A DNA stretch of 64,000 nt, taken from the NCBI GenBank assembly GCA_964372755.1, contig CAYJQX010000001.1, positions 6,563 through 70,562 of the forward strand. Reading direction: 5' to 3'. Under the pieces are notes generated by a model, which ran no database searches, was not told where the DNA came from, and worked only from the letters and a program-made list of their open reading frames with translations. Both the position numbers and the translations under genes were made by a program. This document shows positions 27,603 to 50,696 of the stretch, one piece after another (the first letter of the stretch is position 1; every line of letters starts with the position of its first letter). The stretch comes from an uncultured Candidatus Saccharibacteria bacterium (lineage in GTDB: Bacteria > Patescibacteriota > Minisyncoccia > UBA9983).

Positions 27603-27608
27603 GTAAAA

Positions 27609-28284: not shown

Positions 28285-28285
28285 C

Positions 28286-30154: not shown

Positions 30155-30198
30155 TTGAGATAAGGGATTAGAGGATTTGTTTTAAGTTTTTTAAAAAA

Positions 30199-30744
30199 AT
30201 GGCCGTTACACGTTATTCAGAAGAAGAGTTGCTGGAGGAAGAGAGGCGAACCACCTTGGAGAAAGCTCGTATGGAGGAAGATTCAGAAGAAGAGTCAGAG
30301 GAAGAAGAAACCTCTCGCCCTATGTATTCAGACAGAGAAGAAGAAAATGAAGAAAAAAAAGAGCCGAGAATTTCTACTTTCACGGCAATCCTGATGCTTG
30401 TTTTTGTTTCAACCGTAGAACTTGCGCAGTTCGGCCTTACCTTTCTTGTTGTGGGAGTCGTGGTGAGCCCGATAATCGCTTTCTGCGCGCAAATGATTGT
30501 GACTTTTTGGTTTTGGATGAAAGGCGTCAGCTTCAGGAGCGCTAAAAAAATTATCACAATCGGGGTTTCCATGCTCATAGAATTTATTCCCGGTTTGGAT
30601 GTCTTGCCAGGATTCTTGCTTCAAGTTATTGCTATTATATTAATGACAAAAGCCGAAGATGGCGCGCTGGGTAAAATTGCCTCGACAGTGCCAGGCGGAA
30701 AAAAATTAACGGAAGCCGTCGAGAAGACCTTGAAGAAAGCTTAA
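30199..30744 (+). CDS. small membrane protein with highly acidic N-terminal region (possible pilin/VirB2-like subunit, speculative)
   Basis: EEELLEEERR...DSEEESEEEETS is followed by two or three TM helices (AILMLVFVSTVELAQFGLTFLVVGVVVSPIIAF, ITIGVSMLIEFIPGLDVLPGFLLQVIAIILM). Confidence 0.4.
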   Translation: MAVTRYSEEELLEEERRTTLEKARMEEDSEEESEEEETSRPMYSDREEENEEKKEPRISTFTAILMLVFVSTVELAQFGLTFLVVGVVVSPIIAFCAQMIVTFWFWMKGVSFRSAKKIITIGVSMLIEFIPGLDVLPGFLLQVIAIILMTKAEDGALGKIASTVPGGKKLTEAVEKTLKKA

Positions 30745-30747
30745 AAA

Positions 30748-31731
30748 ATGAAGAAAAATTTTTATCTGATACTAACATTGATAATTATCTTTACGGCGAC
30801 CTTTTTAGCGCCAAGATTTTTTGTTTTAGCCTTCGGAGATGATTTATCTCTTTCAGTTTTTCCGGAAAATCCCGAGGCCGGAGAGGAAATAAAAATCACC
30901 GCTTCAGGTTTTACTTTCAATGTAGATGATTCCGATTTTATTTGGGCGATAAACGGCAAGGTGGCGCTCAAGGGACGCGGAGAAAAGTCTTTGACTTTCA
31001 CAAATGGCGAAGCTGGCAAGGTAACGGAAGTCGTTGTAACGGTAATAGGAGAAAACGGGGAAAGTGTGGTAAGGAAAATCTCCTTTGCTCCGCAAGATCT
31101 GGATATTTTATGGGAAGCCGAAACCTACACTCCTCCTTTTTACAGGGGGAAAGCTCTGCCGAGCTCTGAAGCCTATATCACCTTTTTTGCCCTGCCACAT
31201 TTTTTTGTGAGCGGAAAAAAACTCGCGCCAACGGAACTTACTTACACTTGGAAAATCAACAACAAAATTCTAAGCGATTTTTCAGGGCTGGGGAAAACCA
31301 GTATCCGCATAAAAGGCCCGGAACTTTTTTCCAAGATGGAGGTGGAAGTTGCCGTTTCAAACAGGACCGGCTCCACATCGCAAAATAAAAAATTGACCAT
31401 AGAACCTATTTTTCCGGAACTTATTTTTTATCGCGAGGATGCTCTGGAGGGGACAAATTATGCCAAAGTTTTGGAAAATCCGGCTAAATTTGGCGAAGGA
31501 GAAGTTGGGGTAAGGGTCGAGCCGTATTTCTTTTCTCTTTCAGAGATTAATTTTCTTGATTACGCGTGGAGAGTGAACGGATTTTTATCAAAGCAATACG
31601 AGAAATCCAGAGTGGTTGTTTTCAGAAACAGAGAAGGCCAGGAGAAGGGGCGAGTAAGTGTCTCCCTTGAAGTGCAGAATCAAAAAAATGTGGGGCAAAT
31701 TAGTAAAGCCAGCGCCATGTTAGAATTTTAG
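30748..31731 (+). CDS. secreted hypothetical protein
   Basis: Signal peptide MKKNFYLILTLIIIFTATFLAPRFFVLA. Beta-rich. Confidence 0.4.
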   Translation: MKKNFYLILTLIIIFTATFLAPRFFVLAFGDDLSLSVFPENPEAGEEIKITASGFTFNVDDSDFIWAINGKVALKGRGEKSLTFTNGEAGKVTEVVVTVIGENGESVVRKISFAPQDLDILWEAETYTPPFYRGKALPSSEAYITFFALPHFFVSGKKLAPTELTYTWKINNKILSDFSGLGKTSIRIKGPELFSKMEVEVAVSNRTGSTSQNKKLTIEPIFPELIFYREDALEGTNYAKVLENPAKFGEGEVGVRVEPYFFSLSEINFLDYAWRVNGFLSKQYEKSRVVVFRNREGQEKGRVSVSLEVQNQKNVGQISKASAMLEF

Positions 31732-31734
31732 AAT

Positions 31735-32754
31735 ATGAAAAAGATAGCGTATATTTTTCTTTTTATTTTTATATTTTTTCCGACAGCTTTGTTGGCTGTG
31801 GATTTTATAGATCCGAATTCATCCAATCCTTGCGGGGGAGGCGGTATAACGGAAGATATCCAGAGAGGCAACGAATTCAGGCCGTGTCTTTTGGCTCCTT
31901 TGCCGACAGGGGCGGCCAATGAAGCAAGCCCCACCTTCACCGAGTATCTTACTTTTGTTTACAGGTTTTTGATTGCTGGGACGGCTTTGGTTGCCACCGG
32001 CCAGATAGTTTACGCGGGAATTTTGCGTATTTGGGGCGGAGTGAGCCAGTCAAGTATCACCAAATCAAGAGAGATCATAGAACGATCTCTCTGGGGTCTT
32101 GGCCTTGCTCTATCTTCTTACTTAATTCTCTACACCATCAATCCCAGTCTGGCGGAGATTAAACTGGAAATTCCGCCGATAGTATGGAAGGTGCAGAAGT
32201 TTGAGCCGGTTGAAAAGGGTCCCACCCAAGGTTCTGTTCTAAGTGGCGAAAATATTTCCTCTTCAGAGGAGGCAACAAGAAAATATATACTCAGTAAAGG
32301 TGTAACTATTGTGAGTTCTGGAAATAATTCTGGTGTTGTGGATGCCTGTCCTGATGGGGAAAAATTCTTTGATTATAAAGAAAGAACAGGCAGGAGTTGT
32401 ACCTCAGTAAGAGGTTTAGCTACAAGTACCATAGACAAGATTGGTAATTTAAAAAAGGATTGTAATTGCTCCGTTGCTATTAGTGGAGGGACTGAAGAAG
32501 GACATCAAACTCATGGCCCGAATCATCCAAGTACCTTAGATCTGGAAAAGGGTTTGAATTTTGATAATTTAGAAAAATATATTAAGGAAAATTCTAGTGC
32601 TATTTGCACCAAAAAAATCAAGAAAAAAATAAAACAAGAAGATGGAACAGAGAAGGAAGTAGAAGTGGAAATTAAATCATACGTAACAGATGGTATTAAG
32701 TTTACGGATGAAGATAACCACTGGCACGTGCTGGTCGGAGGTAGATGTTATTAA
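31735..32754 (+). CDS. secreted/membrane hypothetical protein with Cys-rich C-terminal domain
   Basis: Signal peptide plus two hydrophobic helices (FLIAGTALVATGQIVYAGIL, LGLALSSYLILYTI), reminiscent of VirB2/TrbC pilin topology. The C-terminal domain has 8 Cys. Confidence 0.4.
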   Translation: MKKIAYIFLFIFIFFPTALLAVDFIDPNSSNPCGGGGITEDIQRGNEFRPCLLAPLPTGAANEASPTFTEYLTFVYRFLIAGTALVATGQIVYAGILRIWGGVSQSSITKSREIIERSLWGLGLALSSYLILYTINPSLAEIKLEIPPIVWKVQKFEPVEKGPTQGSVLSGENISSSEEATRKYILSKGVTIVSSGNNSGVVDACPDGEKFFDYKERTGRSCTSVRGLATSTIDKIGNLKKDCNCSVAISGGTEEGHQTHGPNHPSTLDLEKGLNFDNLEKYIKENSSAICTKKIKKKIKQEDGTEKEVEVEIKSYVTDGIKFTDEDNHWHVLVGGRCY

Positions 32755-32757
32755 TTT

Positions 32758-34002
32758 ATGTCAAAAAGAAAAATTATCATTTTAGTCCTGGCTGTAATTT
32801 TGATCGGTTTTTCCGCTTATTCCTATTTCTTTTTTGAAAAAAAAGATCTCAACAATAATACTGGAAATGATAACAGAGAGGGAACCTTAGAAAACCTTTT
32901 TCCTTCTTCTGGAGATGCGGAAAATGAAAAACAAAACGAGGGTGGAGTTTCTAGAGAAGAAAGTCAGCTTCCACAAGAAGGTTCAGAAAATAGAGAGGAA
33001 ATATTTGGTCAGGAGATAGAGGCGCCAAAGCAATTAACTATCAATCCAATCTCTGGTTATACCATTGTTTCCACAACTTCGGTCCGTTATGTAGAGACTT
33101 CAACGGGTCATATTTATGAAGTTGATTTTTCCGGAGAAAACTACAATAGATTATCTAATACTACTATTCTAAAAACAGAAGAGTCTTATTGGTCGCCCAA
33201 AGGAGACAAGGTTATCATTAGATATTTAAACGGCGTAAATGACTCTATGATTTTAAAAAATTATTCAGCTGTTTTGCCAAAATCGGCCTCTTCCACCGAG
33301 CTTACGGGATCATTCTTTAATGACTTTAAGGAAATAGCAGTTTCTTCTTCGGAGGAAAGTGTCGCTCTTCTCCAAAAAAATAGCGCAAAATACGATTTAA
33401 TTTTAACTAGCTTTGAGAATACCAAAAGAAAACTTCTTGCCAGTTTCCCCATAGGCCAGTTCAATATCTCTTGGGCCGGTAAAAATACTTTGTCTCTTTT
33501 AACAAAACCAACGAGGGGAATACAAGGAATCTTTTATGGGCTAGACATTAAAACAGGCTCACTAAGAAAAATAGTAGAAGGAAATTCCGGTTTGACGGCC
33601 AAACTTTCGCCGCTCAACAACTTTGTTTTTTATTCAGAAACTGACAAAACCGGAAAAGTCATAGGATATTTTTATGATGTTAAGAAAAACCAAAGACTTA
33701 TCCTTGGCACCAACACTTTTGCGGATAAATGTATCTGGAGCAACAAAACAGAGGGAATTATTTATTGCGCGGTTCCAAAGGAATATTCTTCCGGTGTTTA
33801 TCCGGATGATTGGTATAAAGGAGTAAAGAGTACGGAAGACAAACTATGGCTAGTAGATGCGCAAACAGGAGAGGTTCAAATTTTAAGTGAAAATATGGGC
33901 GGAAATATTGATGCCGTGGATTTGAAATTTACCTCTGACGAGAGTTATTTTTTCTACACAAACAAAAAAGATGGCACTCTATGGACGGTGAAAATAAGAT
34001 AA
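32758..34002 (+). CDS. membrane-anchored hypothetical protein, beta-propeller-like
   Basis: N-terminal TM anchor. Repeated Trp/Tyr-containing beta strands, TolB/WD40-like. Confidence 0.4.
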   Translation: MSKRKIIILVLAVILIGFSAYSYFFFEKKDLNNNTGNDNREGTLENLFPSSGDAENEKQNEGGVSREESQLPQEGSENREEIFGQEIEAPKQLTINPISGYTIVSTTSVRYVETSTGHIYEVDFSGENYNRLSNTTILKTEESYWSPKGDKVIIRYLNGVNDSMILKNYSAVLPKSASSTELTGSFFNDFKEIAVSSSEESVALLQKNSAKYDLILTSFENTKRKLLASFPIGQFNISWAGKNTLSLLTKPTRGIQGIFYGLDIKTGSLRKIVEGNSGLTAKLSPLNNFVFYSETDKTGKVIGYFYDVKKNQRLILGTNTFADKCIWSNKTEGIIYCAVPKEYSSGVYPDDWYKGVKSTEDKLWLVDAQTGEVQILSENMGGNIDAVDLKFTSDESYFFYTNKKDGTLWTVKIR

Positions 34003-36069: not shown

Positions 36070-36480
36070 ATGGATATGGACATAAAAAGCTTCATTTCTG
36101 CCAGTATTCCTCCCGAATCCTCTCAATCTTCAGAAGGAGGGAAGTCTCCCTCCGGAGGGATTAAACTTCTAGTAATCGTAGCTATAGTTGTCCTTATTGT
36201 GGGCGTTGTCTGGTATTATCCCACTATTTCTAGAAAAAATATCACGAGAGAAGAAGAAGCGATAAATAAACAAGTGGAAGAATTGGATAATTTGCGCAAG
36301 CAAGCAGGTGTTAAAACTTACTCAGAAAAAGAGCTTCAGGCTCAATCAAAGGAGCTTGATGCTATGAGACAAACTATTATAGGTTCAGATGGAAAGCCTG
36401 TCAAAGTAGAATCCAAACCGCTCACAGAAGCCGAAATTAAACAGCAGATTGACGAATTAGACGCATTAAGGAAAAGATAA
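36070..36480 (+). CDS. small membrane-anchored coiled-coil protein
   Basis: Internal ATG preceded by TGCTATAAT and a 9-nt spacer. One TM (LLVIVAIVVLIVGVVWYY), then a coiled-coil tail. Confidence 0.4.
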   Translation: MDMDIKSFISASIPPESSQSSEGGKSPSGGIKLLVIVAIVVLIVGVVWYYPTISRKNITREEEAINKQVEELDNLRKQAGVKTYSEKELQAQSKELDAMRQTIIGSDGKPVKVESKPLTEAEIKQQIDELDALRKR

Positions 36481-36520
36481 AATCTTCTAGTTTTTTAAGT
36501 TATTTTAAATTTTATTTTTA

Positions 36521-37927
36521 ATGAACAAAAAAATTCTCTTGCTTGCGATACTTGCTTTCGTTTTAGGAATGGGATTTTCCAAAGCTTTGGCTAATTGGTC
36601 TCCTCCTACCACTAATCCTACGGCGGGAAATGCCCCCACTCCTATTAGTGTTTCTGATTTGTCTCAATATAAAGGAGGGGCGCTTGGTGTGGGCGGTCTT
36701 TTTCGCGCTTTCAGTAATGTTTTGATAGACGGAAACCTTAATTTTTCTGCCAGCTCTACCGGAGCAATCAGAGTAAATGTTCCCGGCAAGCTCAATGCCA
36801 CCCAAGTTTGTATTAATGGAGATTGCAGAGGTAGTTGGGTCTCCGGAGGGGGTGGAGGTACAACAGTCAGCAACAATGGCTCCACTCTTGTGGCTGGAGA
36901 GGGCTTGAGTCTTTCTGATGGGACTCTTTCTTTGAATATAAATAACGGCACTGTCCAAACTTGTCCATCCGGTCAAAAGGCAGATGGCTTATCCCCGCTA
37001 GGAATTATTTCTTGTTCTGCCGATGCTGCTGGAGGTGTAGGGGGTTCGAACGTTTCTGGAGGGACAATAGGGAATCTAGCTTATTTCACCAGCCCAACTA
37101 CTTTGGGTAACTCTGCTCTTACACAGAACAACAAGGGAGCTCTTTACACTGGAGGCGCTTTGGGTGTGGGCGGACGTCTTGTTACTTGGGGGGGTTTTAA
37201 TGTGGGTTTGCCGGGTTTGGTGAATACGGCTCAAGTTTTTGTAAGACGCCCGAATCTTGGTGGCCAAGGAGTTTATGTTGGTAACCTCGATCCGGCTGGC
37301 TCTACTGATGGTTTTTCCACTAATTTTTCCGCAAACGCTACTCATTTCTCGGCGTTGATTAATGGCCAACCAGTTTTTAGTGTCGTCGGGAACGGGGACG
37401 GAAGTTTTAAAGGTAACCTTACGGTGGGTGGTACGGCTACTTTTGATAATGTCGTCACTTTCAAAAATAAATTAGAATTGTGGCCTCTGGATTTGCAATC
37501 TAATTCAGTGTCGGGTGGAGTTTCTCTTTCAAGTTCTGCAAGCGGTCGTTTTGATATCATGTTCGGAAACAAAGTAGGGGCTTTGTTCAACGCAAATGGA
37601 AACCTGACTCTTCCGGGCATAAATGATGTAAATGGTGGCCACATTAGAGCCGGACGACTGGAAATTGTGGACGGAAATTTTGTAACCACTATAGACGATA
37701 GTGTTTTGACAACCCAAGACGTGAATTTGCAGGATCCAAAATGGTCTATCACTAAACCAGAGCAAACAGCTCCCACAGTTAATACCACTAGGACAATCGG
37801 CGCTGTTTTTTACGATGAATGGAATAGGTGTCCAACAGGATATTTTATAAGCGGAATAAGGTTCGGCAAGAAAACGGCCGTGGGCGCAACCGCGGCAACC
37901 ACTGTCATAGAATGCAGCAAGCTCTAA
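36521..37927 (+). CDS. secreted Gly/Ser/Thr-rich fibre/adhesin-like protein (paralog family A)
   Basis: Signal peptide, then ANWSPPTTNPTAGNAPTPISVSDLSQYKGGALGVGGLF and a Cys-x-G-D-C-x-x-x-W motif (VCINGDCRGSWVS). Shares an N-terminal module with ORF 39280-40692. Confidence 0.5.
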   Translation: MNKKILLLAILAFVLGMGFSKALANWSPPTTNPTAGNAPTPISVSDLSQYKGGALGVGGLFRAFSNVLIDGNLNFSASSTGAIRVNVPGKLNATQVCINGDCRGSWVSGGGGGTTVSNNGSTLVAGEGLSLSDGTLSLNINNGTVQTCPSGQKADGLSPLGIISCSADAAGGVGGSNVSGGTIGNLAYFTSPTTLGNSALTQNNKGALYTGGALGVGGRLVTWGGFNVGLPGLVNTAQVFVRRPNLGGQGVYVGNLDPAGSTDGFSTNFSANATHFSALINGQPVFSVVGNGDGSFKGNLTVGGTATFDNVVTFKNKLELWPLDLQSNSVSGGVSLSSSASGRFDIMFGNKVGALFNANGNLTLPGINDVNGGHIRAGRLEIVDGNFVTTIDDSVLTTQDVNLQDPKWSITKPEQTAPTVNTTRTIGAVFYDEWNRCPTGYFISGIRFGKKTAVGATAATTVIECSKL

Positions 37928-39150
37928 AAAGAATTATATTGGCGGGTGTTTTGCTTTTGGTTTTTTCTTTTTTACCTGTCGTTCGCGCGGCTGGCACGGA
38001 AGTTTCTATAAACGGGCAAGCTTGGTCTTCCAATATCGGTTGGATAGATTTTCAGCCCGCCTTCGGCGGAGTTAAGTATGACACTTCAAACGGTAACCTT
38101 TCCGGATACGGCTGGTCTTCCAATGTCGGCTGGATAAGTTTTGAAAATAACGACACTAATAATTGTCCGGCCGGTTCTTGCAGGCCGAAAGTAATTCAAG
38201 ATAGCGACAATCCGAGTGATCCGACAAAGGGCATGGTTACCGGTTGGGCGAGAGTGGTTTCCGCTTGCGCGACAGACAAGTGGAACGGGAGTAATTGCAC
38301 AGGCAACGGAAGCGCGGGAAATTTAGCTGGAGGCTGGGACGGCTGGATAAGTTTTAATTGCACCAATAGTAACGGATGCGGAACTTCTAACTATAAAACA
38401 AAAATCAATCACGTAACGGGGGATTTTTCTGGTTATGCCTGGGGTTCGGACGTTGTGGGTTGGATAAGCTTCAATTGCACCAATCACAGCGGATGCGCCC
38501 AATCAAATTATAAAGTAACAAAAACCCCGGTAGTGGCTCCGACAGTGGATCTTACAGCCACTCCTTCTTCTGTAAATCAAGGCGGGTCTTCCACTCTTTC
38601 TTGGACTTCAACGGATGCAACCTCTTGTGATGCTTCGGGCGATTGGTCTGGCAGCAAAACAACAAGCGGATCTTCTGGAACAGGGACGCTAAATTCGCCA
38701 CCGGCTTCTCGCTCATACACGCTCACCTGTACTGGTCCGGGTGGAAGCTCTTTTGATACTGTGGCAGTTTCGATTCTTTATGATTTTGGAATAACTTCCA
38801 CTCCGGCAAATACGCAGGCGACATTTATAAGCGGTGCGTCTGCTTCAACGACGCCGGTAGATATCACCATTTCTCCCCTTGGCGGGTTCGCTCAACCTGT
38901 TTCCCTTTCTGTTTCTTCTATCACCAAAGATACGGACGGATCTCCGGTTACTGGTTTTACCTATAATATGAACCCAGCAACACAAAGTTCCCCCTACAGC
39001 TCTGGTTCTACTCTAGTGATTACTCTTCCTGGCACCACTCCGGCTGGAAGTTATACTGCCACGATTCAAGGCACAGGCGGGGGCTTGGTACGCACAACTT
39101 CTTTGAGAATCAACAGTGGCGGGGTGACGCCGGAGGTAAGGGAAAGATAG
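37912..39150 (+). CDS. secreted Cys-rich repeat protein
   Basis: Signal peptide MQQALKRIILAGVLLLVFSFLPVVRAAG. Repeats GWI(D/S)F...N..GC...NYK, x3 or more. Thr/Ser-rich C-terminus. Confidence 0.45.
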   Translation: MQQALKRIILAGVLLLVFSFLPVVRAAGTEVSINGQAWSSNIGWIDFQPAFGGVKYDTSNGNLSGYGWSSNVGWISFENNDTNNCPAGSCRPKVIQDSDNPSDPTKGMVTGWARVVSACATDKWNGSNCTGNGSAGNLAGGWDGWISFNCTNSNGCGTSNYKTKINHVTGDFSGYAWGSDVVGWISFNCTNHSGCAQSNYKVTKTPVVAPTVDLTATPSSVNQGGSSTLSWTSTDATSCDASGDWSGSKTTSGSSGTGTLNSPPASRSYTLTCTGPGGSSFDTVAVSILYDFGITSTPANTQATFISGASASTTPVDITISPLGGFAQPVSLSVSSITKDTDGSPVTGFTYNMNPATQSSPYSSGSTLVITLPGTTPAGSYTATIQGTGGGLVRTTSLRINSGGVTPEVRER

Positions 39151-39160
39151 TAGGTAGTAT

Positions 39161-39263
39161 AATGCGAACCCACGAATGTATGCGAATAATAAGAATTACA
39201 AGATTAAACCAGTGGTAAATTATTATTTTAACCTTAATTTGCGTCACTCGGGCGCATTTATAG
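39161..39263 (+). repeat. MITE-like repeat copy 4 (inverted left half + direct right half)
   Basis: AATGCGAACCCACGAATGTATGCGAATAATAAGAAT ... GCGTCACTCGGGCGCATTTATAG is related to the core GCGTCATTCGTGCGCATTATTC of copies 1 to 3. Confidence 0.5.
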
Positions 39264-39279
39264 ATTCACATTACGCTTT

Positions 39280-40692
39280 ATGAAAACAACCAAAACAATT
39301 TTAATTAGCGCTACGATCTTTACGGCTATTTTTATTGGCCAAGTTGTTTTTGCCTCTTGGACTGCCCCAACAGCTGATCCGACAGCCAACAACACGGAAG
39401 CGCCGATTAATGTAAGTGGTATAACTCAAAGCAAAGCGGGCGCTCTGGGGTCGGGAATTTTCAAAGCTTATGGGGATGTTGTGGGTTTGATTGACAACAT
39501 GCAGATTGTCGCAAGCGGTAATTCAAATACAAACAAAGGAATTACTATCGGCTATGACACTTCCGGCAACGTCGGGCACATATATTCCAGAGAAGTCGGA
39601 GCGGGCTCAAGGCCTTTGTCCTTGAACGGAAATAGTTTATACAGCACTGGTCTAAACGGTTCTGTGGGTATTGGCAATAATTCGCCGACTCAAAAATTAG
39701 ATGTCACAGGCAATGTCAAAGCCACTCAATTCTGTTTGGGTGCAAGTTGTATAAGCGACTGGACTTCAACCGGCAATAGCCAATGGACAAACGTAACGGG
39801 AGGCATTAATTATAGCGGTGGCAACGTAGGAGTGGGGGCCTCGACACCCGGAGCAAAATTCCATGTTTCAGGCACTTCTCTTTTTGACGGCAATATTACC
39901 CTAGATATTGCCGGTTCCGGCAATGATAGTCCTTCTCTCACTTTTGTAAGGTCTCCAAACGCCAACTGGTCTTTTCAAGACAGAAGCGGAAATTTTTATT
40001 TGGACACGAACTCTGAGGCCGACCAAACATTTTTTGTTTCAAACACGAATTCATCAAGAGTAGCTTCTCTTGATGTTGAAGGGAATGTAAAAGGAAGCCA
40101 ATTATGTATTGGCGGTGATTGCCGTACTGCTTGGCCAAGCACGGGGACATCATATGTTGGTAGCGCAAACATAGGCATCAGTGGCAGTACAATAAGTTTG
40201 GTCAGTTCGCCGACAGTTTCAAGTCTTACTTCTCAAGGTGCTATTTCTGCGAACTCGTTAAATCAATCGACTTATGGTTTACTTGTTCCCAATGGTAACG
40301 TCGGGATTGGCACGGCAGCTCCAAGTTCTAAGCTTGAAGTTGTGGGGAATATAATTGCCAACAGTCCGATTGCTAGTAATCATGTGGCCACGAAAGGATA
40401 TGTTGACGCTCAAGCTGGCGGAGCGCAATCGGTCATGGTTAAATCTCAATCCTCCTCCGTCAGTTGTCCGTCGGGATATGTGATTGCTAAATGCGGTTTT
40501 GGGAGTGGAAACAACGCTCAAGTCCAGAGTGAGGTCAACAACGGCGCAGCGCAATCATTTCAGGACGGGATAGAGACGGGCAGTACTCTTACGCGGACGT
40601 ATTGTCGTTATAACGATCTCGGTAGCCAAACGGCCACAAATCCGTATCCCAACCAAAAGAACGCTGCTGTAGCGCTTTGTGTCAAGCAATAG
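39280..40692 (+). CDS. secreted Gly/Ser/Thr-rich fibre/adhesin-like protein (paralog family A)
   Basis: Signal peptide, then ASWTAPTADPTANNTEAPINVSGITQSKAGALGSGIF. Two copies of the C-x-G-x-x-C-x-x-x-W motif (FCLGASCISDWTS, LCIGGDCRTAWPS). Confidence 0.5.
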   Translation: MKTTKTILISATIFTAIFIGQVVFASWTAPTADPTANNTEAPINVSGITQSKAGALGSGIFKAYGDVVGLIDNMQIVASGNSNTNKGITIGYDTSGNVGHIYSREVGAGSRPLSLNGNSLYSTGLNGSVGIGNNSPTQKLDVTGNVKATQFCLGASCISDWTSTGNSQWTNVTGGINYSGGNVGVGASTPGAKFHVSGTSLFDGNITLDIAGSGNDSPSLTFVRSPNANWSFQDRSGNFYLDTNSEADQTFFVSNTNSSRVASLDVEGNVKGSQLCIGGDCRTAWPSTGTSYVGSANIGISGSTISLVSSPTVSSLTSQGAISANSLNQSTYGLLVPNGNVGIGTAAPSSKLEVVGNIIANSPIASNHVATKGYVDAQAGGAQSVMVKSQSSSVSCPSGYVIAKCGFGSGNNAQVQSEVNNGAAQSFQDGIETGSTLTRTYCRYNDLGSQTATNPYPNQKNAAVALCVKQ

Positions 40693-40695
40693 ATT

Positions 40696-41229
40696 ATGAA
40701 GGTTGTCACTAGCTTTGTTGTGGTTGCCGCAATTGCCGTTCTTGCTTATTTCTACGGTGATTTTAAAAGTGGTAAAATCGTCGAAACAGATAAAACATGT
40801 CCTGTTTCAGAGACGATGCACGAAGTGCGCGGACAATCACTTGTGGGTGTCGTTGAAGAAGGAACAACGATTCTAATTGAGGAGGGATACTATAAATGCC
40901 ATAAAGCAAAAAAGAATGAAATTGTCGCTTATCGGTATGCCGGGAATCCGAACTTGATTATAAAAATTATTAAAGGTGTTCCCGGAGATTCTCTAAAGAT
41001 AAATCCAGAAGGTCAGATCGTCGTCAATAATGAAATTCTTGCAACAACTATGAATGAGCCTTATATCACAAGAGTTGATCCGCCAAGCGCCCTTAAACTT
41101 TATGAAGGTGCAATTCCGGAAGACGCCTATCTTATTTTAGGCAATATTCCAAGTGGGGGAGTGGACAGCACTCGTTTCGGCCTTGTCCACATTTCTGATG
41201 TGGTAGGGAAAGTTAAAATAGCCCCGTAA
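40696..41229 (+). CDS. signal peptidase I-like (S26 family) membrane peptidase
   Basis: N-terminal TM. Ser block RGQSLVGVV, Lys box IIKIIKGVPGDSL and the C-terminal GNIPSGGVDSTRFGLV match S26 boxes B, D and E. Confidence 0.6.
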   Translation: MKVVTSFVVVAAIAVLAYFYGDFKSGKIVETDKTCPVSETMHEVRGQSLVGVVEEGTTILIEEGYYKCHKAKKNEIVAYRYAGNPNLIIKIIKGVPGDSLKINPEGQIVVNNEILATTMNEPYITRVDPPSALKLYEGAIPEDAYLILGNIPSGGVDSTRFGLVHISDVVGKVKIAP

Positions 41230-41388: not shown

Positions 41389-42582
41389 ATGAAAAAGACA
41401 CTAGCAATGCTTATTATGGCCATGTTTTGCCTTGTTTTAACGGCAAATTGTGGCGGAGGAAAGAATCCGGTCGGAGGACCAAATCCGACACCCACACCGA
41501 CCCCAACACCAACGCCGACTCCGACACCAGATCCTACTCCAACTCCTACCCCGACTCCAACCCCCGCAAATTGGCCGATTATTGATTTCCCCGTGGATTT
41601 TTATCCGCGAGGAGTCGCCGTGACCGGCAATGTTTTAACGGTTGTAGGAGTAAGAACGAGTCCTGGAATTTCCAATGCCATAGCTGGCTTCGTTTTTGGC
41701 TACAACAAAGAGACAGGAGAGAAAATCTGGCAGGCCGTTGTTCCCGAAATGAAAGAAACGGGATACACGAGAGGGATCGGAGCCAGAGACAACAATATTT
41801 ATTTCCCATGGAACCAAACAAACCTGGCCGGCAAGGTGTATGTCAGCGCATATACCAACACCGGTTTGAAGGTGGATCCATGGCCGGTGAAGCTGGCGGA
41901 TTCTGATTATCAGACAGGTTTGGTGGCCAATGGACAGATCTTCGCTTCCACGCTGGAGAAAGTAACATCCTTTTCTCTGAATGGGGACATGATTTGGTCC
42001 AGCACTCTTGGACTTAGCCATGTTTACGAAGCGATATCAAGTATTGCTTCTGCCGGAGGCGATATTCTGGTGGTTGGCAGTACCACGCGGAGTTTGTACA
42101 AAACATCCCTCGGAGACTGGGATATTTTCTTGACCCGCAGAGATTCTATGGGGAATAAAGTGTGGAATATCCAGTGGGGGGATGACACCAGAAATACCTC
42201 CACATGGGGAGTGGCGACCAATAATTCCCATATCTTTTTGGGAATTATGACTGGGGCTAAGACCGGGGAACCTGGGACCACCACACGGGTTATAAGTTTT
42301 TCTTTGGGTGGTCCGGATAATGCCGACCCAGTCTGGATCTCATCTGATCTTGATGGTGGTGGTGCATACGGCATACGAGCTCTTTCGGCTGAAGGCAACG
42401 ATATCTACGTGCTATTAAAGCACGGCCTTCAGAGGGTTGATGCCACAACCGGCATCCTGGGATGGAAAATCCCAGAGGTCAGTTCAGACCAATTCGGAGG
42501 CATTGTCGTTGACGGCGGGTATCTGTATGTTGTGAACGGAGAGAAGCTCTACCGAGTATCTCGCGGTGGAGCCGTCTCCTAA
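41389..42582 (+). CDS. lipoprotein with (Pro-Thr)n linker and beta-propeller-like domain; compositionally atypical
   Basis: Lipobox LTANC. PTPTPTPTPTPTPTPDPTPTPTPTPTP linker. Clear GGAGG SD 7 nt upstream. Local GC visibly higher than flanks. Confidence 0.5.
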   Translation: MKKTLAMLIMAMFCLVLTANCGGGKNPVGGPNPTPTPTPTPTPTPTPDPTPTPTPTPTPANWPIIDFPVDFYPRGVAVTGNVLTVVGVRTSPGISNAIAGFVFGYNKETGEKIWQAVVPEMKETGYTRGIGARDNNIYFPWNQTNLAGKVYVSAYTNTGLKVDPWPVKLADSDYQTGLVANGQIFASTLEKVTSFSLNGDMIWSSTLGLSHVYEAISSIASAGGDILVVGSTTRSLYKTSLGDWDIFLTRRDSMGNKVWNIQWGDDTRNTSTWGVATNNSHIFLGIMTGAKTGEPGTTTRVISFSLGGPDNADPVWISSDLDGGGAYGIRALSAEGNDIYVLLKHGLQRVDATTGILGWKIPEVSSDQFGGIVVDGGYLYVVNGEKLYRVSRGGAVS

Positions 42583-42724
42583 AATGGTTTTTGATTTTGA
42601 AGCAAAAAAACAACAAGGCGCGTTTGTGCGATCCACGGCGCGTCTTTTTTCTTGCAAAACACTTCTTCCACAAAGAGGTGTTTTTTGCTGTCTAAAAATT
42701 CATTTTCCGTTTATAATTAAATCA

Positions 42725-43681
42725 ATGGCAGAAGAAAGAATATCTCCTTTCAGTTTTCTTTTTCGCGGATGCAGAGAATACAGCTTGAGCCCTTGGCAGT
42801 GCCCGCAGTTTTTGTTTTTGTTGATGGGTACGATTATCATTGCTTCTATTTTGGTGACTAATTTTGTGGCTCGCCGTTATGTAGAACCGGAAGTGGTGGC
42901 TCTCATAGTTCTTTTTGTGACAGGCGTTCTTTTTATAATCAGCTATGTCATAGTTTCTTCCTTTGAGCGAATCGCCGAATCTTCGCGCTCCAAATCCGAA
43001 TTTATCAGTATCATGTCTCACAGGCTAAGGGCTCCTCTTTCGGGCATAAAATGGAAAGTGGATGCCATGATGAGCGATAAGTTTTCCGGGAAAGTCGAAC
43101 TCGTGGAAGAATCTATTCACGAAATAAGAAATTATAATGAGAGGATGATTTCGTTGGTAAACGATCTCCTTGACCTAAACAGAATAGAGGATCACACCGT
43201 AAAATTAAATCCTTCTTCTTTTTCTTTGAGAGCGTTGGTGGATGAGGAGGCCGATATTTTAAAGAAAGAAGCAAAAACCAAAGATCTTGTTTTTGAAATA
43301 AAATCCAGTGAAAACCTCTTGCCTGTTTTTGCCGACAGGGGAAGAATAAAAAATATCGTTCTGCATCTTTTAGACAACGCGGTAAAGTATTCAACTCACG
43401 GAGGAGTGATACAAGTTTCTCTGGAATCTTGGCAAAACGGCAAACAAATCAGATTTTCGGTAAGAGACCAAGGGATTGGAGTGTCTGAAGAAGATCAAAA
43501 AAAGGTTTTTTCAAAGTTTTTCCGCGCGCGCAACAGCTTGCAATACCAAACGGAAGGAACTGGAGTGGGCATTTATCTGGCCAAAAAAATCGTGGAGTTA
43601 TCTCAAGGAGAGATTGGCTTTACTTCCGTAGAAGGGAAAGGTTCAACATTTTGGTTTACCTTGCCGTCGCAGGGCGTTTAA
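42725..43681 (+). CDS. sensor histidine kinase (HisKA + HATPase_c)
   Basis: Two TM helices. H-box ISIMSHRLRAPLSGI, N-box LLDNAVKYS, G-boxes DQGIGV and GTGVGIYLAK. TATAAT sits 7 nt before the ATG. Confidence 0.75.
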   Translation: MAEERISPFSFLFRGCREYSLSPWQCPQFLFLLMGTIIIASILVTNFVARRYVEPEVVALIVLFVTGVLFIISYVIVSSFERIAESSRSKSEFISIMSHRLRAPLSGIKWKVDAMMSDKFSGKVELVEESIHEIRNYNERMISLVNDLLDLNRIEDHTVKLNPSSFSLRALVDEEADILKKEAKTKDLVFEIKSSENLLPVFADRGRIKNIVLHLLDNAVKYSTHGGVIQVSLESWQNGKQIRFSVRDQGIGVSEEDQKKVFSKFFRARNSLQYQTEGTGVGIYLAKKIVELSQGEIGFTSVEGKGSTFWFTLPSQGV

Positions 43682-43703
43682 GTTTAACAGGTTTATATAT
43701 TAC

Positions 43704-44081
43704 ATGGCTAAAATTCTTTTTATAGAAGACGAAGTAAAATTCCAAAAGTCCTTTATGGAATTTTTTAGCAGGGAAGGCTTAGAGGTGATTCCTGCTTACG
43801 ACGGTGTCTCCGGATTGAAAATGGCGGAGGAAAATATGCCGGATTTAATAATTTTGGATCTTGTTTTGCCTAAAAAAGACGGTTTCGAAGTTTTGAAAGA
43901 AATAAAAACCAACGCTCTTCTTCAAAAAATCCCGATCATCGTACTCACAAACTTGGAAGGAGCGGAGGACATAGAAAGGGTAATGAAATACAAGGTGCAA
44001 GATTACCTTGTCAAAGCCAATTATTCTCTGCAGGAAATTTTGGGAGTAGTAAAAAAATATGTTCCGAATTCTAACTCATGA
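43704..44081 (+). CDS. stand-alone response regulator receiver domain (CheY-like)
   Basis: Receiver motifs ILFIEDE, the phospho-acceptor region IILDLVLP, IIVLT and the conserved K. Confidence 0.8.
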   Translation: MAKILFIEDEVKFQKSFMEFFSREGLEVIPAYDGVSGLKMAEENMPDLIILDLVLPKKDGFEVLKEIKTNALLQKIPIIVLTNLEGAEDIERVMKYKVQDYLVKANYSLQEILGVVKKYVPNSNS

Positions 44082-45838
44082 AAATAACTAATAATCAAAT
44101 TAAGCTTTTTCTTCTGGACTCTGATTTAGTTTCAGCCAAAGATGTTGCGGAAGCGGAGGAAAAAGCTAAGAAAGAAAACAAATCCCTAGGAGAAGTTTTG
44201 GTCTCGTCTGGAAAAATTTCAGAAGATCAGATGAGTCGTCTCTACGCCTATATAATGGGAATTCCTTTTTTAAGCCTTGAACACGAAAAGATAGACAGCA
44301 AAGTTCTCTCCATCATACCCGAACCGATTGCGCGGAGCCATAACATTGTGGCATACAAGCTCACAGGAGAAGAACTTGAAGTGGCTATGCTTGATCCCGA
44401 CGATCTGGAGACCATCGAATTTATCAGAAAGGCTAATAAATACAAGATAAAACCTCGTCTTACGGATCAAAAATCCATCAAGCAAGCGCTTTCCCAGTAT
44501 CAGAAAAGTTTGGGCGCGGAATTCGGAGAAATTATAGACACTGAAGCTAAACTTGTAACGGTAAAAGACAAAGAGGGCGAAGACGTTTCGCAAGAAGATT
44601 TAAAAAAACTTGCCGAAGATTTGCCGGTGGTAAAAATTGTCGATACTCTCTTGAGGCACGCGATTTTGCAAAGAGCCAGTGATATTCATATAGAGCCGAT
44701 GGATAACCAGGTTATTGCTCGCTATCGGATAGACGGGATTTTGCACGATGCTATGAATTTACCTAAGGAAACGGCTTCCGGTATTATCGCGAGAATCAAA
44801 GTGTTGGCGAGTTTAAAGCTGGACGAAAAAAGATTGCCTCAAGACGGGCGTTTTAAAATTGAAAGCCAAGAAGATAAAGTTTCCCTGCGTGTTTCTATTT
44901 TGCCGGTCTACAATGGCGAAAAAGTGGTTATGCGTATTCTGAGGGAAAATGCTAAAGGGTATACTCTTGAAGGCTTAGGTATTTCCCCAGATCAAATAGA
45001 AAGAATTCAAAATGCAATGAGAAGACCTCATGGCATGCTTCTTGTAACCGGTCCGACAGGCTCGGGTAAAACTACCACTCTCTACACCATTTTGGATATT
45101 TTAAATACTCCCGCAGTGAATATTTCCACGATTGAAGATCCGATAGAGTATCAAATGCCGCGTATCAATCAAAGCCAAGTCAAGCCAGAAATTGGATTTT
45201 CTTTCGCCAACGGCTTGCGTTCCCTGTTACGGCAAGATCCGGATATTATTATGGTGGGGGAAATCAGAGACAACGAAACGGCCGCGCTGGCTATAAACGC
45301 GGCTCTTACCGGACATTTGGTGCTCTCCACTTTGCATACAAACTCTTCAGCAGGAGCGATTCCAAGATTGATTGATATGAAAGTGGAACCTTTTCTTTTG
45401 TCTTCTACTTTGAATCTTATTGTCGCCCAGAGGCTTGTGCGCAAACTTTCTAAAGACAAGGAAAAATATTTTTTGAGCAAAGACCAATACGAAAGTTTAT
45501 CCAAAGAAGTCGATCTAAATCTTATTTTAGATTATTTGAAAAAATGGAAGATAATTCCAGTTAATGATAAAGAAAAAAATCCGTGGGAAAAAATTCCCTT
45601 TTATTTGCCGAAAGCGGGAGAGGATTCTGCCGATGGCTACTCGGGCAGGGTAGGGATCCACGAATCTATCCTTGTAACAGAAACGATAAGAGCCATGATT
45701 ATCGGAAATGCTTCTTCCGATGAAATAGAGAAACAAGCGAAAAAAGAAGGGCTGATGACAATGTTAGAAGATGGCATTGTAAAGGCAGTGCAGGGGATTA
45801 CTTCCATTGAAGAAGTGTTAAGAGTGACAAGAGAATGA
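44078..45838 (+). CDS. pilB: type IV pilus assembly ATPase PilB (GspE family)
   Basis: N-terminal GSPII-like domain, Walker A LVTGPTGSGKTTT and the His box LVLSTLHTNS. Overlaps the RR stop and the pilC start (ATGA). Confidence 0.9.
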   Translation: MKITNNQIKLFLLDSDLVSAKDVAEAEEKAKKENKSLGEVLVSSGKISEDQMSRLYAYIMGIPFLSLEHEKIDSKVLSIIPEPIARSHNIVAYKLTGEELEVAMLDPDDLETIEFIRKANKYKIKPRLTDQKSIKQALSQYQKSLGAEFGEIIDTEAKLVTVKDKEGEDVSQEDLKKLAEDLPVVKIVDTLLRHAILQRASDIHIEPMDNQVIARYRIDGILHDAMNLPKETASGIIARIKVLASLKLDEKRLPQDGRFKIESQEDKVSLRVSILPVYNGEKVVMRILRENAKGYTLEGLGISPDQIERIQNAMRRPHGMLLVTGPTGSGKTTTLYTILDILNTPAVNISTIEDPIEYQMPRINQSQVKPEIGFSFANGLRSLLRQDPDIIMVGEIRDNETAALAINAALTGHLVLSTLHTNSSAGAIPRLIDMKVEPFLLSSTLNLIVAQRLVRKLSKDKEKYFLSKDQYESLSKEVDLNLILDYLKKWKIIPVNDKEKNPWEKIPFYLPKAGEDSADGYSGRVGIHESILVTETIRAMIIGNASSDEIEKQAKKEGLMTMLEDGIVKAVQGITSIEEVLRVTRE

Positions 45839-47052
45839 TCTTTGCTTACAAAGCTAAAAAAATATCCGGCGAAAAAACAGAGGGCGCGTTGGAAGCTCGT
45901 GACCGTTTTGAACTGGCTCGCAATCTGCGGTCTAGCGGGTTCATTCTGACCGAATGGGAAGAAGCAAACAAAGAAAAGGGAAATGTTCTTAACATAAATT
46001 TTTCATTTCTTCAAAAAGTGTCTCTTTCCGATAAAATGATTTTCAGTAAAAATCTTTCAGCCATGGTTTCAGCGGGCATGCCAGTCGTAAGAGGGATAGA
46101 GACGTTAGCACGGGAGACAAGCAATAAAAATTTTCAAAAGATTTTAAAAGATATTGCCGACAATATCAAACGAGGAAAAAGCCTGAGTGAAAGCTTGAAA
46201 GAACATGAGAAAATCTTCTCTCCGCTTTTTGTCGCCATGGTCAAGGTAGGCGAGGAGGGCGGTAAACTTTCGGAATCTCTTTTACTTATCGGTTCTCAAC
46301 TGGAAAGAGACAACACGCTAAGAAGGAGAATCAAGGGAGCTTTGATGTATCCCCTTATAATATTGCTTGCTATGTTCGGGATCGGCGCGCTGATGATGAT
46401 TTACGTGGTGCCAACCTTGGTGGGTACTTTTACAGAGCTTGGAGTGGAACTTCCTAGCTCCACCAAGCTGATAATTTTTTTCAGCAATTCCCTCTCGCAT
46501 AATCCCATAATTACCTTCTCTATAATTTTTGCTTTAGCGGGGAGTCTTTTTTGGTTTTTAAAAACGGAAACAGGCAAAAGAATGATTGTGGAAATCATGC
46601 TTAAAATGCCGGTGCTTTCTGTTTTGGTCAAAAAGATTAACTCTGCCAGAACAGCCAGAGCCTTATCTTCTCTCATCGGTTCGGGTGTTAATTTGGTGGA
46701 AGGTTTGAATATTACTAAAAATGTTTTACAGAATTATCGTTACAGGGCAATTTTAGAAGAAGCTAGCAGTCGAATCCAAAAAGGAGGCACCTTATCGGAA
46801 ACTTTTCTCCGTTACGAAAATCTTTATCCCTCTTTGGTTGGAGAAATGGTTTCGGCGGGAGAAGAAACCGGCAAGCTCGGAGAAATGCTCAATCGCTTGG
46901 CTGACTTTTATGAAGAGGAAGTGGCTGATTCCACAAAAGACTTGTCCTCCATCATTGAGCCGATTATATTAATTTTTATCGGCATAGCAGTAGGCTTTTT
47001 TACAGTTTCCATGGTAAAACCTCTTTATTCGGTGTTAGACACCATTCAATAA
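45835..47052 (+). CDS. pilC: type IV pilus inner-membrane platform protein PilC (GspF family)
   Basis: Two GspF repeats with three TM helices. Confidence 0.85.
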   Translation: MIFAYKAKKISGEKTEGALEARDRFELARNLRSSGFILTEWEEANKEKGNVLNINFSFLQKVSLSDKMIFSKNLSAMVSAGMPVVRGIETLARETSNKNFQKILKDIADNIKRGKSLSESLKEHEKIFSPLFVAMVKVGEEGGKLSESLLLIGSQLERDNTLRRRIKGALMYPLIILLAMFGIGALMMIYVVPTLVGTFTELGVELPSSTKLIIFFSNSLSHNPIITFSIIFALAGSLFWFLKTETGKRMIVEIMLKMPVLSVLVKKINSARTARALSSLIGSGVNLVEGLNITKNVLQNYRYRAILEEASSRIQKGGTLSETFLRYENLYPSLVGEMVSAGEETGKLGEMLNRLADFYEEEVADSTKDLSSIIEPIILIFIGIAVGFFTVSMVKPLYSVLDTIQ

Positions 47053-49016: not shown

Positions 49017-50696
49017 GTGCTTAAGCAGTGGAGAATTATAGAAAAGCTTCATCCTCAGCTGGTTCAACATCTTCTTGAAACTCGAGGTCTCAAAGAGACA
49101 AAAGAAAAAGAAAGGTTTCTTTTCCCTGATTATGAAAATCATTTAATTGATCCATTTGAGATAAAGGGAATGGAGGAGCTTGTTGGCCGGTTTGTACAAG
49201 CGATCGATAAGAAGGAGATGATTGGCATATTAAGCGATTACGATGCCGATGGTGTGTGCTCGGCGGCGCTCTTTTCTGATTTTTTTCGTGCGATTGGCTA
49301 TAAAAAATATTTCATACATATTCCAGACAGAAACAAAGATGGTTATGGCCTTTCTTTGGATTTTGTCCTTGAAGCAAAAGAGAAAGGGGTGAGCTTGCTT
49401 TTTACTTTGGACTCGGGCGTCTCAAATTTCGAGGAGATAAAAAAAGCTTCCGAAATGGGAATAGATGTTATTGTGGTGGACCATCATGAACCGCCACCCA
49501 TACTTCCTTCCGCGCTTGTTATTGTGGATCCAAAACAAAAAGACGAGACATCTCCTTTTATCTATTTTTGTACGGCGGGATTATTATTTAAAATAATCTG
49601 TGCCCTTCTTAAAAAAAGGAATTTTGGTTTGCCTATCGGTTGGGAAAAATGGCTTTTGGATTTGGTGGCCGTGGCAACTATCGCCGACATGGTTCCCATG
49701 GTAAATGAAAACAGGATTCTTGTTCATTACGGTCTTAAAGTTTTACGCAGGAATCGTCGCCCCGGTTTAAATGCCTTGCTTCAGAGTAAAAGATTATGGG
49801 CGAGTAATTTATCCGAAGACGATGTTTCTTTTAGTATTGCTCCAAGTATCAATTTGGCTGGACGGATGACTCACGCTAAGGAAAGCCTAGACCTACTTCT
49901 TTCTCCGTCCGTAGAAGAGGCAAAGGAGATTATTTCAAGATTGAACACGCTCTCTCTCGATCGGAAAAAAGCTGTTTCTACGATCATAGATAGTTTGGAT
50001 AAAGAGCTTGGAGAAGGTAACAAAAAAAATTTGATTGTTTCGGGACATCCCGATTGGCATCCGGGAGTGCTGGGTTTGGCTGCAAACAAGATGGTGGAAA
50101 AATATGGGGGAATAGTTTTTCTTTGGGGGCAAGGAGCGGGAGACAACGCCAAAGGTTCTTGTCGGAGTGATGGCGGAGTGGATTTGGTAAGCTTAATGCA
50201 AGCTATGCCAGAAAATTTCTTGAGTGAATTCGGAGGACACAAATTAGCGGGCGGTTTTTCCTTGTCTTTGGAGAAAACAAAAAATTTGAAAAAAGTTATA
50301 GAAAAAACTTATAAAGCTTTTAAAAATCAGGAATCCGAAAAATCAATTTTTGCCGATGCGGAATTGGTTTTGGACGATGTAAATTGGCTTAATTATGAAA
50401 AAATAAGGAAACTTTCCCCGTTTGGCAAAGAGAATGTAAAGCCAATGTTTGTTTTTAGAGATATTATTATTGAAGAAATAAAAATCTTTGGCGTGGGAAG
50501 GGAACATATAAAACTCGTTTTGAACAATTCAAAAGGCGAAGAAATAACGGCCGTCAGTTTTTTTTCGGGATCTCATTTATGGGGAGTAAAAGAAAAGATT
50601 AAAAAAGGAGAAAAAATCGATCTTCTTGCTTCATTTGATATTGAGAATTATCGAGGCGCAAAAAATTTAATATTAAGGATAGTTGATGTAAAGTAA
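49017..50696 (+). CDS. recJ: single-stranded-DNA-specific exonuclease RecJ
   Basis: DHH motifs ILSDYDADGVCS, DHH (VVDHHEPP) and the DHHA1 GGGHKLAGGFSL. Confidence 0.8.
   Translation: MLKQWRIIEKLHPQLVQHLLETRGLKETKEKERFLFPDYENHLIDPFEIKGMEELVGRFVQAIDKKEMIGILSDYDADGVCSAALFSDFFRAIGYKKYFIHIPDRNKDGYGLSLDFVLEAKEKGVSLLFTLDSGVSNFEEIKKASEMGIDVIVVDHHEPPPILPSALVIVDPKQKDETSPFIYFCTAGLLFKIICALLKKRNFGLPIGWEKWLLDLVAVATIADMVPMVNENRILVHYGLKVLRRNRRPGLNALLQSKRLWASNLSEDDVSFSIAPSINLAGRMTHAKESLDLLLSPSVEEAKEIISRLNTLSLDRKKAVSTIIDSLDKELGEGNKKNLIVSGHPDWHPGVLGLAANKMVEKYGGIVFLWGQGAGDNAKGSCRSDGGVDLVSLMQAMPENFLSEFGGHKLAGGFSLSLEKTKNLKKVIEKTYKAFKNQESEKSIFADAELVLDDVNWLNYEKIRKLSPFGKENVKPMFVFRDIIIEEIKIFGVGREHIKLVLNNSKGEEITAVSFFSGSHLWGVKEKIKKGEKIDLLASFDIENYRGAKNLILRIVDVK

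Follow-up and report, generated by a model that had tools for sequence, protein, structure and literature searches.

The window analysed here is a stretch of 64,000 nucleotides from an uncultured Candidatus Saccharibacteria bacterium (contig CAYJQX010000001.1), and our subject is a run of five genes at its positions 36070–41229, all read in one direction with short gaps between them (Table 1). They encode, in order, a small membrane protein, three large secreted proteins (ORF1, ORF2 and ORF3) and an S26-family signal peptidase (S26 below). The four ORFs listed in a preliminary description of this DNA were all confirmed in place; the small membrane protein upstream of them, which that description had missed, is also part of the cassette. 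With its GC content of about 41%, ComEC, RecJ, PilB/PilC, a Gram-positive-type cluster resembling a type IV secretion system (T4SS) and few biosynthetic genes, the window resembles a genome of the Patescibacteria (Candidate Phyla Radiation, CPR). Those relatives of the fibre proteins that carry a name belong to metagenome-assembled genomes (MAGs) of the Parcubacteria group.

Table 1. The five-gene cassette, its internal features and its downstream neighbours (window positions; residues refer to the encoded protein)
Feature	Positions	Residues	Strand	Remarks
Small single-pass membrane protein	36070–36480		+	three charged repeats (..ELDxLRK); first cassette gene; start from L004–L006 orthologs
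ORF1, Sec-exported N-module fibre-like protein	36521–37927	468 aa	+	
ORF1 signal peptide	36521–36592	aa 1–24		
ORF1 N-module	36593–36703	aa 25–61		
ORF1 C-x4-C-x3-W loop	36809–36838	aa 97–106		CINGDCRGSW
ORF2, secreted GW-repeat protein	37912–39150	412 aa	+	
ORF3, Sec-exported N-module fibre protein	39280–40692	470 aa	+	
ORF3 signal peptide	39280–39354	aa 1–25		
ORF3 N-module	39355–39465	aa 26–62		
ORF3 GxVGxG stalk repeats		aa 127, 181, 339		
ORF3 Cys loops	39733–39762, 40105–40134			CLGASCISDW, CIGGDCRTAW
ORF3 neck	40378–40407	aa 367–376		NHVATKGYVD, then AQAGG
ORF3 Cys-rich head	to 40692			
S26 type I signal peptidase	40696–41229	177 aa	+	
Probable lipoprotein	41389–42582		+	PT-rich linker, beta-propeller-like body; syntenic neighbour
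Histidine kinase and response regulator	42566–44081		+	between cassette and PilB
PilB, type IV pilus assembly ATPase	44078–45838		+	
PilC, type IV pilus platform protein	45835–47052		+	

Gly, Ser, Thr, Ala and Asn together make up about 50–53% of each of ORF1, ORF2 and ORF3. Their N-termini, as read from the translations, combine an n-region that contains Lys with an apolar stretch and a site of the AxA type, with predicted cleavage at ALA|NW (ORF1), VRA|AG (ORF2) and VFA|SW (ORF3). ORF1 and ORF3 had been called paralogs; in BLASTP they align over the ~78 N-terminal residues (42% identity, E=2e-11) and over a Cys-loop segment (E=6e-6), so they are paralogous only in the N-terminal module and a stalk repeat and not over their full length. 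The module that both were said to carry straight after the signal peptide (the N-module) is indeed there, and it was found in no other ORF of the 64 kb window. A repeated Cys motif is likewise present, its true form being C-x4-C-x3-W, which occurs once in ORF1 and twice in ORF3. ORF1 is a near-orphan with the C-terminal tail 'CPTGYFISG...CSKL'; its single ortholog (P0135, 63% identity) lies in a syntenic locus with the order pyrophosphatase, NusA, small membrane protein, ORF1, ORF2, ORF3.

None of the three proteins has a Pfam match, and matches in NCBIfam and PHROGs are absent or marginal. Peptidase_S74 is missing from ORF1 and ORF3 (Pfam), and a PDB sequence search with ORF3 returned no match. 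We rejected a type IV pilin identity for ORF1–3, which have no N_methyl match in Pfam, and no G|F-x-x-x-E prepilin motif occurs anywhere in the window. An identity as LPXTG surface proteins, which the preliminary description had already discounted, was rejected from the C-termini (...VIECSKL, ...TPEVRER and ...ALCVKQ), which show neither an LPXTG-type end nor a C-terminal transmembrane segment (wall-anchor motifs other than LPXTG were not scanned).

The N-module is a Pro-rich stretch of ~37 residues (W-T-x-P-T-x-x-P-P-x-G-N-x-x-A-P-I-N-V-S-x-x-x-Q-x-K-x-G-x-L) that follows the signal peptide directly, and many homologues of ORF3 share only the first ~45 mature residues with it. Using a profile of 48 positions searched against 1.84 billion representative proteins, we were able to identify 8,258 clusters (50% identity) with a match at E≤1e-3 and 2,495 at E≤1e-10, almost always at residues ~22–75. 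The module is thus no special trait of this locus and heads at least 8,258 protein clusters. At the junction in 169 members, Ala occupies position -1 in 145 (86%), Trp position +1 in 161 (95%) and V, A, I or L position -3 in 141, and the 18 residues before the junction are 96% apolar or small (ORF1 and ORF3 have one extra residue, N or S, ahead of the conserved Trp). These junction residues fit the -3/-1 rule of signal peptidase I, which would place the start of the N-module at or next to the mature N-terminus; most likely, judging from these alignments, the N-module is the mature N-terminus. Nothing in Pfam, NCBIfam or the PDB matches it, in agreement with the preliminary description, and it was absent from the 2.9 million IMG/VR contigs searched.

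Downstream of the N-module, family members continue with GNVGIGT..P..KL.V.G stalk repeats, often a Cys loop, and then divergent C-terminal parts, with heads that include Peptidase_S74 (in the paralogues P0047, P0079, P0086 and P0154), DUF1554, Kelch, Fib_succ_major and Cys-rich domains. The same GNVGIGT repeats occur in S74-bearing proteins annotated as 'tail fiber domain-containing', PHROG tail-fibre profiles give weak matches, and in P0108 the neck that precedes the head coincides with the end of a Pfam Phage_T7_tail match. The earlier proposal of fibre-like secreted proteins agrees with these stalk repeats and profile matches, and nothing points to the sheath-like structure that had been suggested alongside it. 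This layout, in which a stalk joins a conserved end to a variable head, is the pattern of phage receptor-binding proteins.

We note a variant start in some fibre-like proteins (L016, L041, L046, L065 and P0117), in which a 'PNPGH' motif after the signal peptide replaces the W-T-x-P module. Proteins of this type adjoin S26 genes in archaeal-labelled (DPANN-type) and some other MAGs, and the motif may be an archaeal counterpart of the N-module.

For locus finding, the broad N-module alignment (A1) was too variable and a narrower one (A4) was used, with which 80 metagenomic loci were recovered. Tandem arrays of N-module genes are frequent among them, and the CPR cassette has the order small membrane protein, N-module fibre gene(s), GW-repeat protein and sometimes S26; L004 keeps the order small membrane protein, ORF1, ORF2, ORF3 of the window. 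In 23 of 65 evaluable loci, the gene directly upstream of the N-module genes encodes a small single-pass membrane protein with an acidic repeat tail ('..IIKSLTAPE'). The small membrane protein of the window has orthologs in the syntenic loci L004–L006 and a weaker relative directly before S26 in L003, where three type IV pilin-like proteins in tandem, with Laminin_G_3 domains (L003:32-2412), stand ahead of this pair. The LTAP-type proteins (L076–L142; e.g. L117:9547-9795 and L097:5738-6040) have two to three acidic repeats ending in (I/L)(I/L)K(S/N)LTAP, and we found no family name for them.

The second partner, ORF2, is a secreted GW-repeat protein as previously described, with its start moved from GTG 37828 to ATG 37912 (MQQALKRIIL...) because the ortholog in L004 has the same Met and the same 16-nt overlap with ORF1. 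It contains four G(Y/W)AWSxNIGWISF-type repeats (about 37999–38511), Ig/PKD-like domains and a conserved C-terminal tail (..TPEVRER), and the family alignment (A5) has invariant G, W and F columns. The GW part of the family has no Pfam model (PKD/Ig/fn3 match only in the variable middle domains of relatives), and a PDB search with the family profile returned PKD domains only. In 16 of 61 evaluable loci a relative of ORF2 sits no more than 400 bp from the N-module array, and almost without exception immediately downstream of it. The C-terminal tail of the family has the form P-x-[WF]-[KQ]-E-[IV]-x-P (PEVRER in the window, 39100–39150) and is seen in A5 in L084, L097, L101, L108, L110, L125, L137 and L138, with a short hydrophobic segment beyond it in L084; the tail could be a sorting or recognition signal.

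The wider setting of the cassette points to type IV pili (T4P). PilB starts 3.4 kb past ORF3 in the window, and L001 orthologs of the window PilB and PilC match Pfam MshEN/T2SSE and T2SSF. The lipoprotein gene between S26 and the histidine kinase is probably outside the cassette. N-module and GW genes followed by histidine kinase, response regulator, PilB and PilC in this order recur in L001, L095, L125 and L154. Complete T4P loci enclose the cassette in L097 and L110, where the order is PilM, a 176-aa gene (no Pfam match, in the usual PilN position), PilO, PilB and a response regulator, then another PilB-like ATPase (with the size of a PilT), PilC, pilin(s) and PilD, and after these the small transmembrane protein, N-module genes (plus S26 in L097), the GW protein and three more pilins. 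Similar T4P loci with the cassette inside them are L018, L117, L122 and L131; in the window the fibre genes are near PilB/PilC only. The earlier statement that these proteins are not type IV pilins is right for ORF1–3 themselves, and it had set aside this T4P context, the cassette being part of T4P loci in many relatives. Overall, PilB/PilC occur in 12 of the 28 N-module loci of at least 8 kb as compared to 3 of 39 control loci (odds ratio 9, Fisher p~1e-3). L002, L009 and L011 contain pilin-fibre fusions, i.e. an N_methyl prepilin N-terminus joined to a GNVGIGT stalk, a neck and a head (DUF1554 in L011), which suggests that such fibres can be pilus-borne.

Based on these comparisons, we put at about even chances that the locus is one copy of a recurrent CPR cassette for Sec-exported, phage-tail-fibre-like adhesins in a T4P gene neighbourhood. 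The N-module would be the docking end by which interchangeable fibres attach to a common partner, either the pilus or its minor pilins, and the GW-repeat protein and the small membrane protein would possibly mediate this docking. Recognition of targets on host cells or surfaces would fall to the variable heads, a role that PilY1 has in other bacteria and that follows the logic of phage receptor-binding proteins.

Several observations weigh against this reading. The 64 kb window contains no pilin gene, and PilB/PilC are shown by only 43% of the large N-module loci, so the association with pili is one of synteny. The small membrane protein of the window resembles the LTAP type only in position and architecture. 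AlphaFold2 models were too poor to use, both for ORF3 (41-sequence alignment, pLDDT 59, pTM 0.26) and for ORF2 (single sequence, pLDDT 44); with structure predictions unusable and function derived from comparative genomics, our confidence in the mechanism is moderate.

The missing pilin genes would also suit free-standing fibres, anchored to the cell surface or an S-layer, that have their own processing peptidase and nothing to do with pili, in essence the model of the preliminary description. Such fibres would fit the Sec-type (not prepilin) signal peptides of ORF1–3 and the more than half of large N-module loci that have no PilB/PilC within 10 kb. We consider them unlikely, since pilD and minor-pilin genes flank the cassette in several complete loci, pilin-fibre fusions exist, PilB/PilC are nine-fold enriched over the control loci, and, of the anchors scanned for, ORF1–3 have neither a C-terminal transmembrane segment nor an LPXTG-type end. 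The resemblance of stalk repeats and neck to phage tail fibres could alternatively mark the cluster as the tail-fibre gene set of a prophage or tailocin remnant. This is very improbable, as the cluster has no phage genes for structure or replication beside it, all three proteins have Sec signal peptides, the IMG/VR search was negative for the N-module, and the locus is syntenic in related cellular genomes, beside NusA and PilB/PilC.

The last gene of the cassette begins 3 nt after the stop of ORF3, and its assignment to the S26 family was borne out (Pfam PF10502, Peptidase_S26, 51.8 bits with a cut-off of 22.9, E=1.2e-13; TIGR02227, 65.5 bits with a cut-off of 47). A profile search against the PDB gave S. 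aureus SpsB (4wvh, 7.6e-17) as the closest solved relative. The protein has an N-terminal transmembrane anchor (hydrophobic N-terminus VVTSFVVVAAIAVLAYFY) and the boxes VRGQSL (Ser), IIKIIKGVPGD (Lys) and GN..GG.DSTRFGLV. The subfamily shares the motifs VRGxSL, GYYxC, KIVKGxPGD and LILGN..GS.DS..FGLV, with S48, K90/K93, G97-D98 and D157-S158 invariant in its alignment (A3). By these residues, the S26 protein of the window is an intact Ser/Lys signal peptidase I of the bacterial P-type (MEROPS S26A).

Searching GTDB representatives (best match 49% identity), we found the S26 subfamily at 67 loci, in MAGs of CPR, DPANN-type archaea, Omnitrophota, Bdellovibrionota, Bacteroidota, Proteobacteria and others, and 66 of these loci were analysable for neighbours. 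A fibre-type gene is immediately adjacent to S26 in 28 of the 66 loci, as compared to 15 of 495 genes at least three positions away. The enrichment remains with a stricter criterion, GNVGIG plus N-module (odds ratio 6.1, p=2.4e-5), and BLAST single-linkage clustering places 34 of 115 S26-adjacent genes in one group. Among the 23 loci where a neck-bearing gene is adjacent, 18 have the fibre gene directly upstream of S26 on the same strand. From the N-module side, S26 is found in 6 of the 80 loci, each time immediately adjacent.

What the S26 neighbours share is not the N-module; it is a neck, '(I/L)xN..P....DAATKxYVD' followed by Ala/Gly, and a Cys-rich head. Of 106 ORFs near S26, 29 bear the neck, as compared to 7 among 130 representatives of the N-module family and 1 among 96 N-module genes without an adjacent S26, and ORF3 is the sole ORF of the window that bears it. 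The peptidase tracks the ORF3-type neck and Cys-rich head, not the N-module. We take S26 as a membrane-anchored Ser/Lys signal peptidase I that would travel with neck-bearing, Cys-rich-head fibre genes, here ORF3. Its most likely role, argued by analogy and with a probability slightly under one half, is to remove the signal peptides of the neighbouring fibre proteins, as SipW does for TasA/TapA; we favour such a role on two grounds, the ordinary, membrane-anchored type I character of the enzyme and the canonical sites of its neighbours. A second cut by S26 at the small-residue hinge past the neck (...YVDAQA|GGA...) would be conceivable.

Other findings count against a role in signal-peptide removal that is particular to the fibres. 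The pairing follows neck and head and neither the N-module nor the type of export signal, and the partners of S26 include pilin fusions, which are processed by PilD and need no signal peptidase I. That the pairing follows neck and head and also occurs with pilin-type N-termini leaves room for a maturation role or a housekeeping role. P0002, the closest relative of ORF3, is colinear with it to residue 355 and then has an ORF1-like C-terminus without the neck, and in its locus, L001, the lipoprotein gene follows directly, with no S26 between; neck, head and S26 thus change jointly from one locus to the other. Housekeeping genes such as DnaJ, RecR and CofD adjoin S26 at about half of its loci, and for this reason S26 could be the cell's general LepB. 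The peptidase had been called dedicated: a link holds at the level of the family, and dedication is unproven, given L001 and the housekeeping neighbours.

If S26 is the organism's general LepB, its place after ORF3 would be an accident in a compact genome rich in secreted proteins. By score it is indeed an ordinary, SpsB-like signal peptidase I (TIGR02227 above the cut-off), no second S26 gene was found in the 64 kb window, the syntenic L001 has none at this place, and many subfamily members adjoin DnaJ, RecR, CofD and similar genes. A relaxed motif search for a canonical LepB in the window and ~1.3 Mb of fetched loci (~150 stretches) found none and is uninformative. We nevertheless hold the general LepB to be somewhat unlikely, because the adjacency to fibre genes is far above the 3% background, usually with the fibre gene first and a gap of a few bases, and because it holds in archaeal-labelled, Proteobacteria, Bacteroidota and Omnitrophota MAGs. 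Organisms of these groups are expected to own a canonical signal peptidase. The subfamily is present twice in one Paceibacterota MAG (L029, L060), and neck, head and S26 change jointly between the window and L001.

That the adjacency tracks the neck motif, and does so whether the partner has a Sec, pilin or other N-terminus, would agree with S26 making a maturation cut at the Ala/Gly hinge behind the neck, or acting as an assembly factor. It would then be a trans counterpart of the self-cleaving S74 chaperone (of the 106 ORFs near S26, a single one has an S74 motif) or would parallel the action of TraF on the pilin TrbC, and the small residues after the neck (AQAGG, AAGGSGGG...) do resemble -3/-1 sites. 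Signal peptidase I, however, acts at the surface of the membrane, and its sites adjoin an h-region that spans the membrane, while ~370 residues separate the neck from the N-terminus; the scores of the TraF models fall far short of the cut-offs (21 bits vs 100–156); and cutting off the head would lose the presumed binding domain. Such a maturation or assembly role appears improbable to us, and signal-peptide removal in the manner of SipW is the role we think most likely for S26.

Some further genes beside S26 are worth listing. An Omnitrophota MAG (L054:1804-16040) has S26 between two giant proteins of 2,679 and 1,751 aa, with 27 and 17 GNVGIG-type repeats. The gene at L026:757-2058, beside S26, matches Pfam RVT_1 (reverse transcriptase), and L049:3095-4342, also beside S26, clusters with it by BLAST; L049 has a GNVGIG fibre gene on the other side of S26. 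Judging from these matches, the reverse-transcriptase-type genes of L026 and L049 may be diversity-generating retroelements that act on fibre heads.

We compared the cassette with the closest known systems. PilY1 is a non-pilin whose signal peptide is of type I and which acts together with minor pilins at the tip of the pilus (PMC7541494). The fibre proteins are like PilY1 in their large size and in having a Sec signal peptide and no prepilin leader; a presumed distal binding domain and, in some loci, a setting among minor-pilin and pilus-assembly genes (PilB/PilC alone in the window) may bring them closer to it. They differ in that ORF1–3 lack the PilY1/Neisseria_PilC beta-propeller domain (no Pfam match), and the cassette has a tail-fibre-like stalk, a conserved short N-terminal module (this region is variable in PilY1), multiple head-swapped paralogues, and GW-repeat and small transmembrane partners, and its link to the pilus is a putative one.

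SipW is an ER-type (Ser/His) S26B enzyme, whereas the window enzyme is P-type (Ser/Lys) and SpsB-like with a conserved Lys box, and ORF1–3 are not of the TasA/camelysin family (PF12389; no Pfam match). What the two have in common is the signal peptidase gene within an operon of secreted fibre proteins, SipW being the dedicated signal peptidase of the tapA-sipW-tasA fibre operon of Bacillus subtilis (PMC9245690). Phage S74 tail fibres and tailspikes share with the cassette the GNVGIGT..P..KL.V.G stalk repeats, the '..DAATKxYVD' neck and the division into a fixed attachment end and a variable receptor-binding end; in contrast to them, ORF1 and ORF3 lack an S74 domain, start with Sec signal peptides and are encoded by cellular genes, and the N-module is absent from IMG/VR.

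TraF of IncP/Ti systems, also of the S26 family, is a small membrane-anchored peptidase encoded with filament subunit genes, and the window does contain a T4SS-like cluster. We rejected a TraF identity from the scores (21 bits vs cut-offs of 100.25 and 156; TIGR02771 / NF010459); there is also no adjoining TrbC-like pilin, and the T4SS-like genes are more than 6 kb off, beyond NusA and a pyrophosphatase on the opposite strand. The SipA/LepA proteins of streptococcal sortase-pilus loci are S26 homologues that are needed for assembly and have lost the catalytic residues, with a chaperone role. The subfamily of the window differs from them in its invariant Ser and Lys, and no sortase or LPXTG motif is present.

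In the literature we found neither the repeat motif nor CPR fibre or signal-peptidase systems of this kind described. The cassette is widespread and unannotated in CPR, and it is kin to PilY1-type pilus adhesins and to fibre operons with their own signal peptidase; it is not a new category. A bolder version would be that the small transmembrane protein, N-module fibres, GW protein and S26 form an undescribed T4P accessory system of CPR, with variants in archaeal-labelled MAGs and Omnitrophota, in which the N-module loads receptor-binding proteins onto the pilus, the heads set the host cells, and S26 is fibre-specific, tied to neck and head, and not generic. We regard this version, taken as a whole, as doubtful.

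On the current view, the majority of CPR bacteria live attached to other microbes. To our knowledge, T4P are the only attachment device of CPR with experimental support, and the host-recognition molecules are largely unknown outside a few Saccharibacteria. The more than 8,000 clusters of secreted fibres, now annotated only as 'hypothetical', combine a putative conserved docking end with hypervariable lectin-like or Cys-rich heads, and a pilus-adjacent fibre family with recurrent partners offers concrete candidates for host-range determinants. Should the fibre-S26 pair (seen in CPR, archaea, Omnitrophota and Bdellovibrionota MAGs) serve a specific function, it would add a new case of a signal peptidase linked to filaments.

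Other genes of the window include the Gram-positive-type T4SS or conjugation-like cluster at 14594–34002, with a VirD4/TraG-like coupling protein (14594–16978), PrgI (27035–27466), an apparently split TraC/VirB4 ATPase (27625–28284 and 28286–30154), large secreted proteins with no Pfam match (17379–20009, 21888–23945 and 23909–26224) and a TSP3-repeat protein (20890–21873). Downstream, RecJ (49017–50696) lies just upstream of the ComEC channel gene (51059–52627), and a separate metallo-beta-lactamase-fold gene follows (52617–53480), so ComEC appears to be split in two genes.

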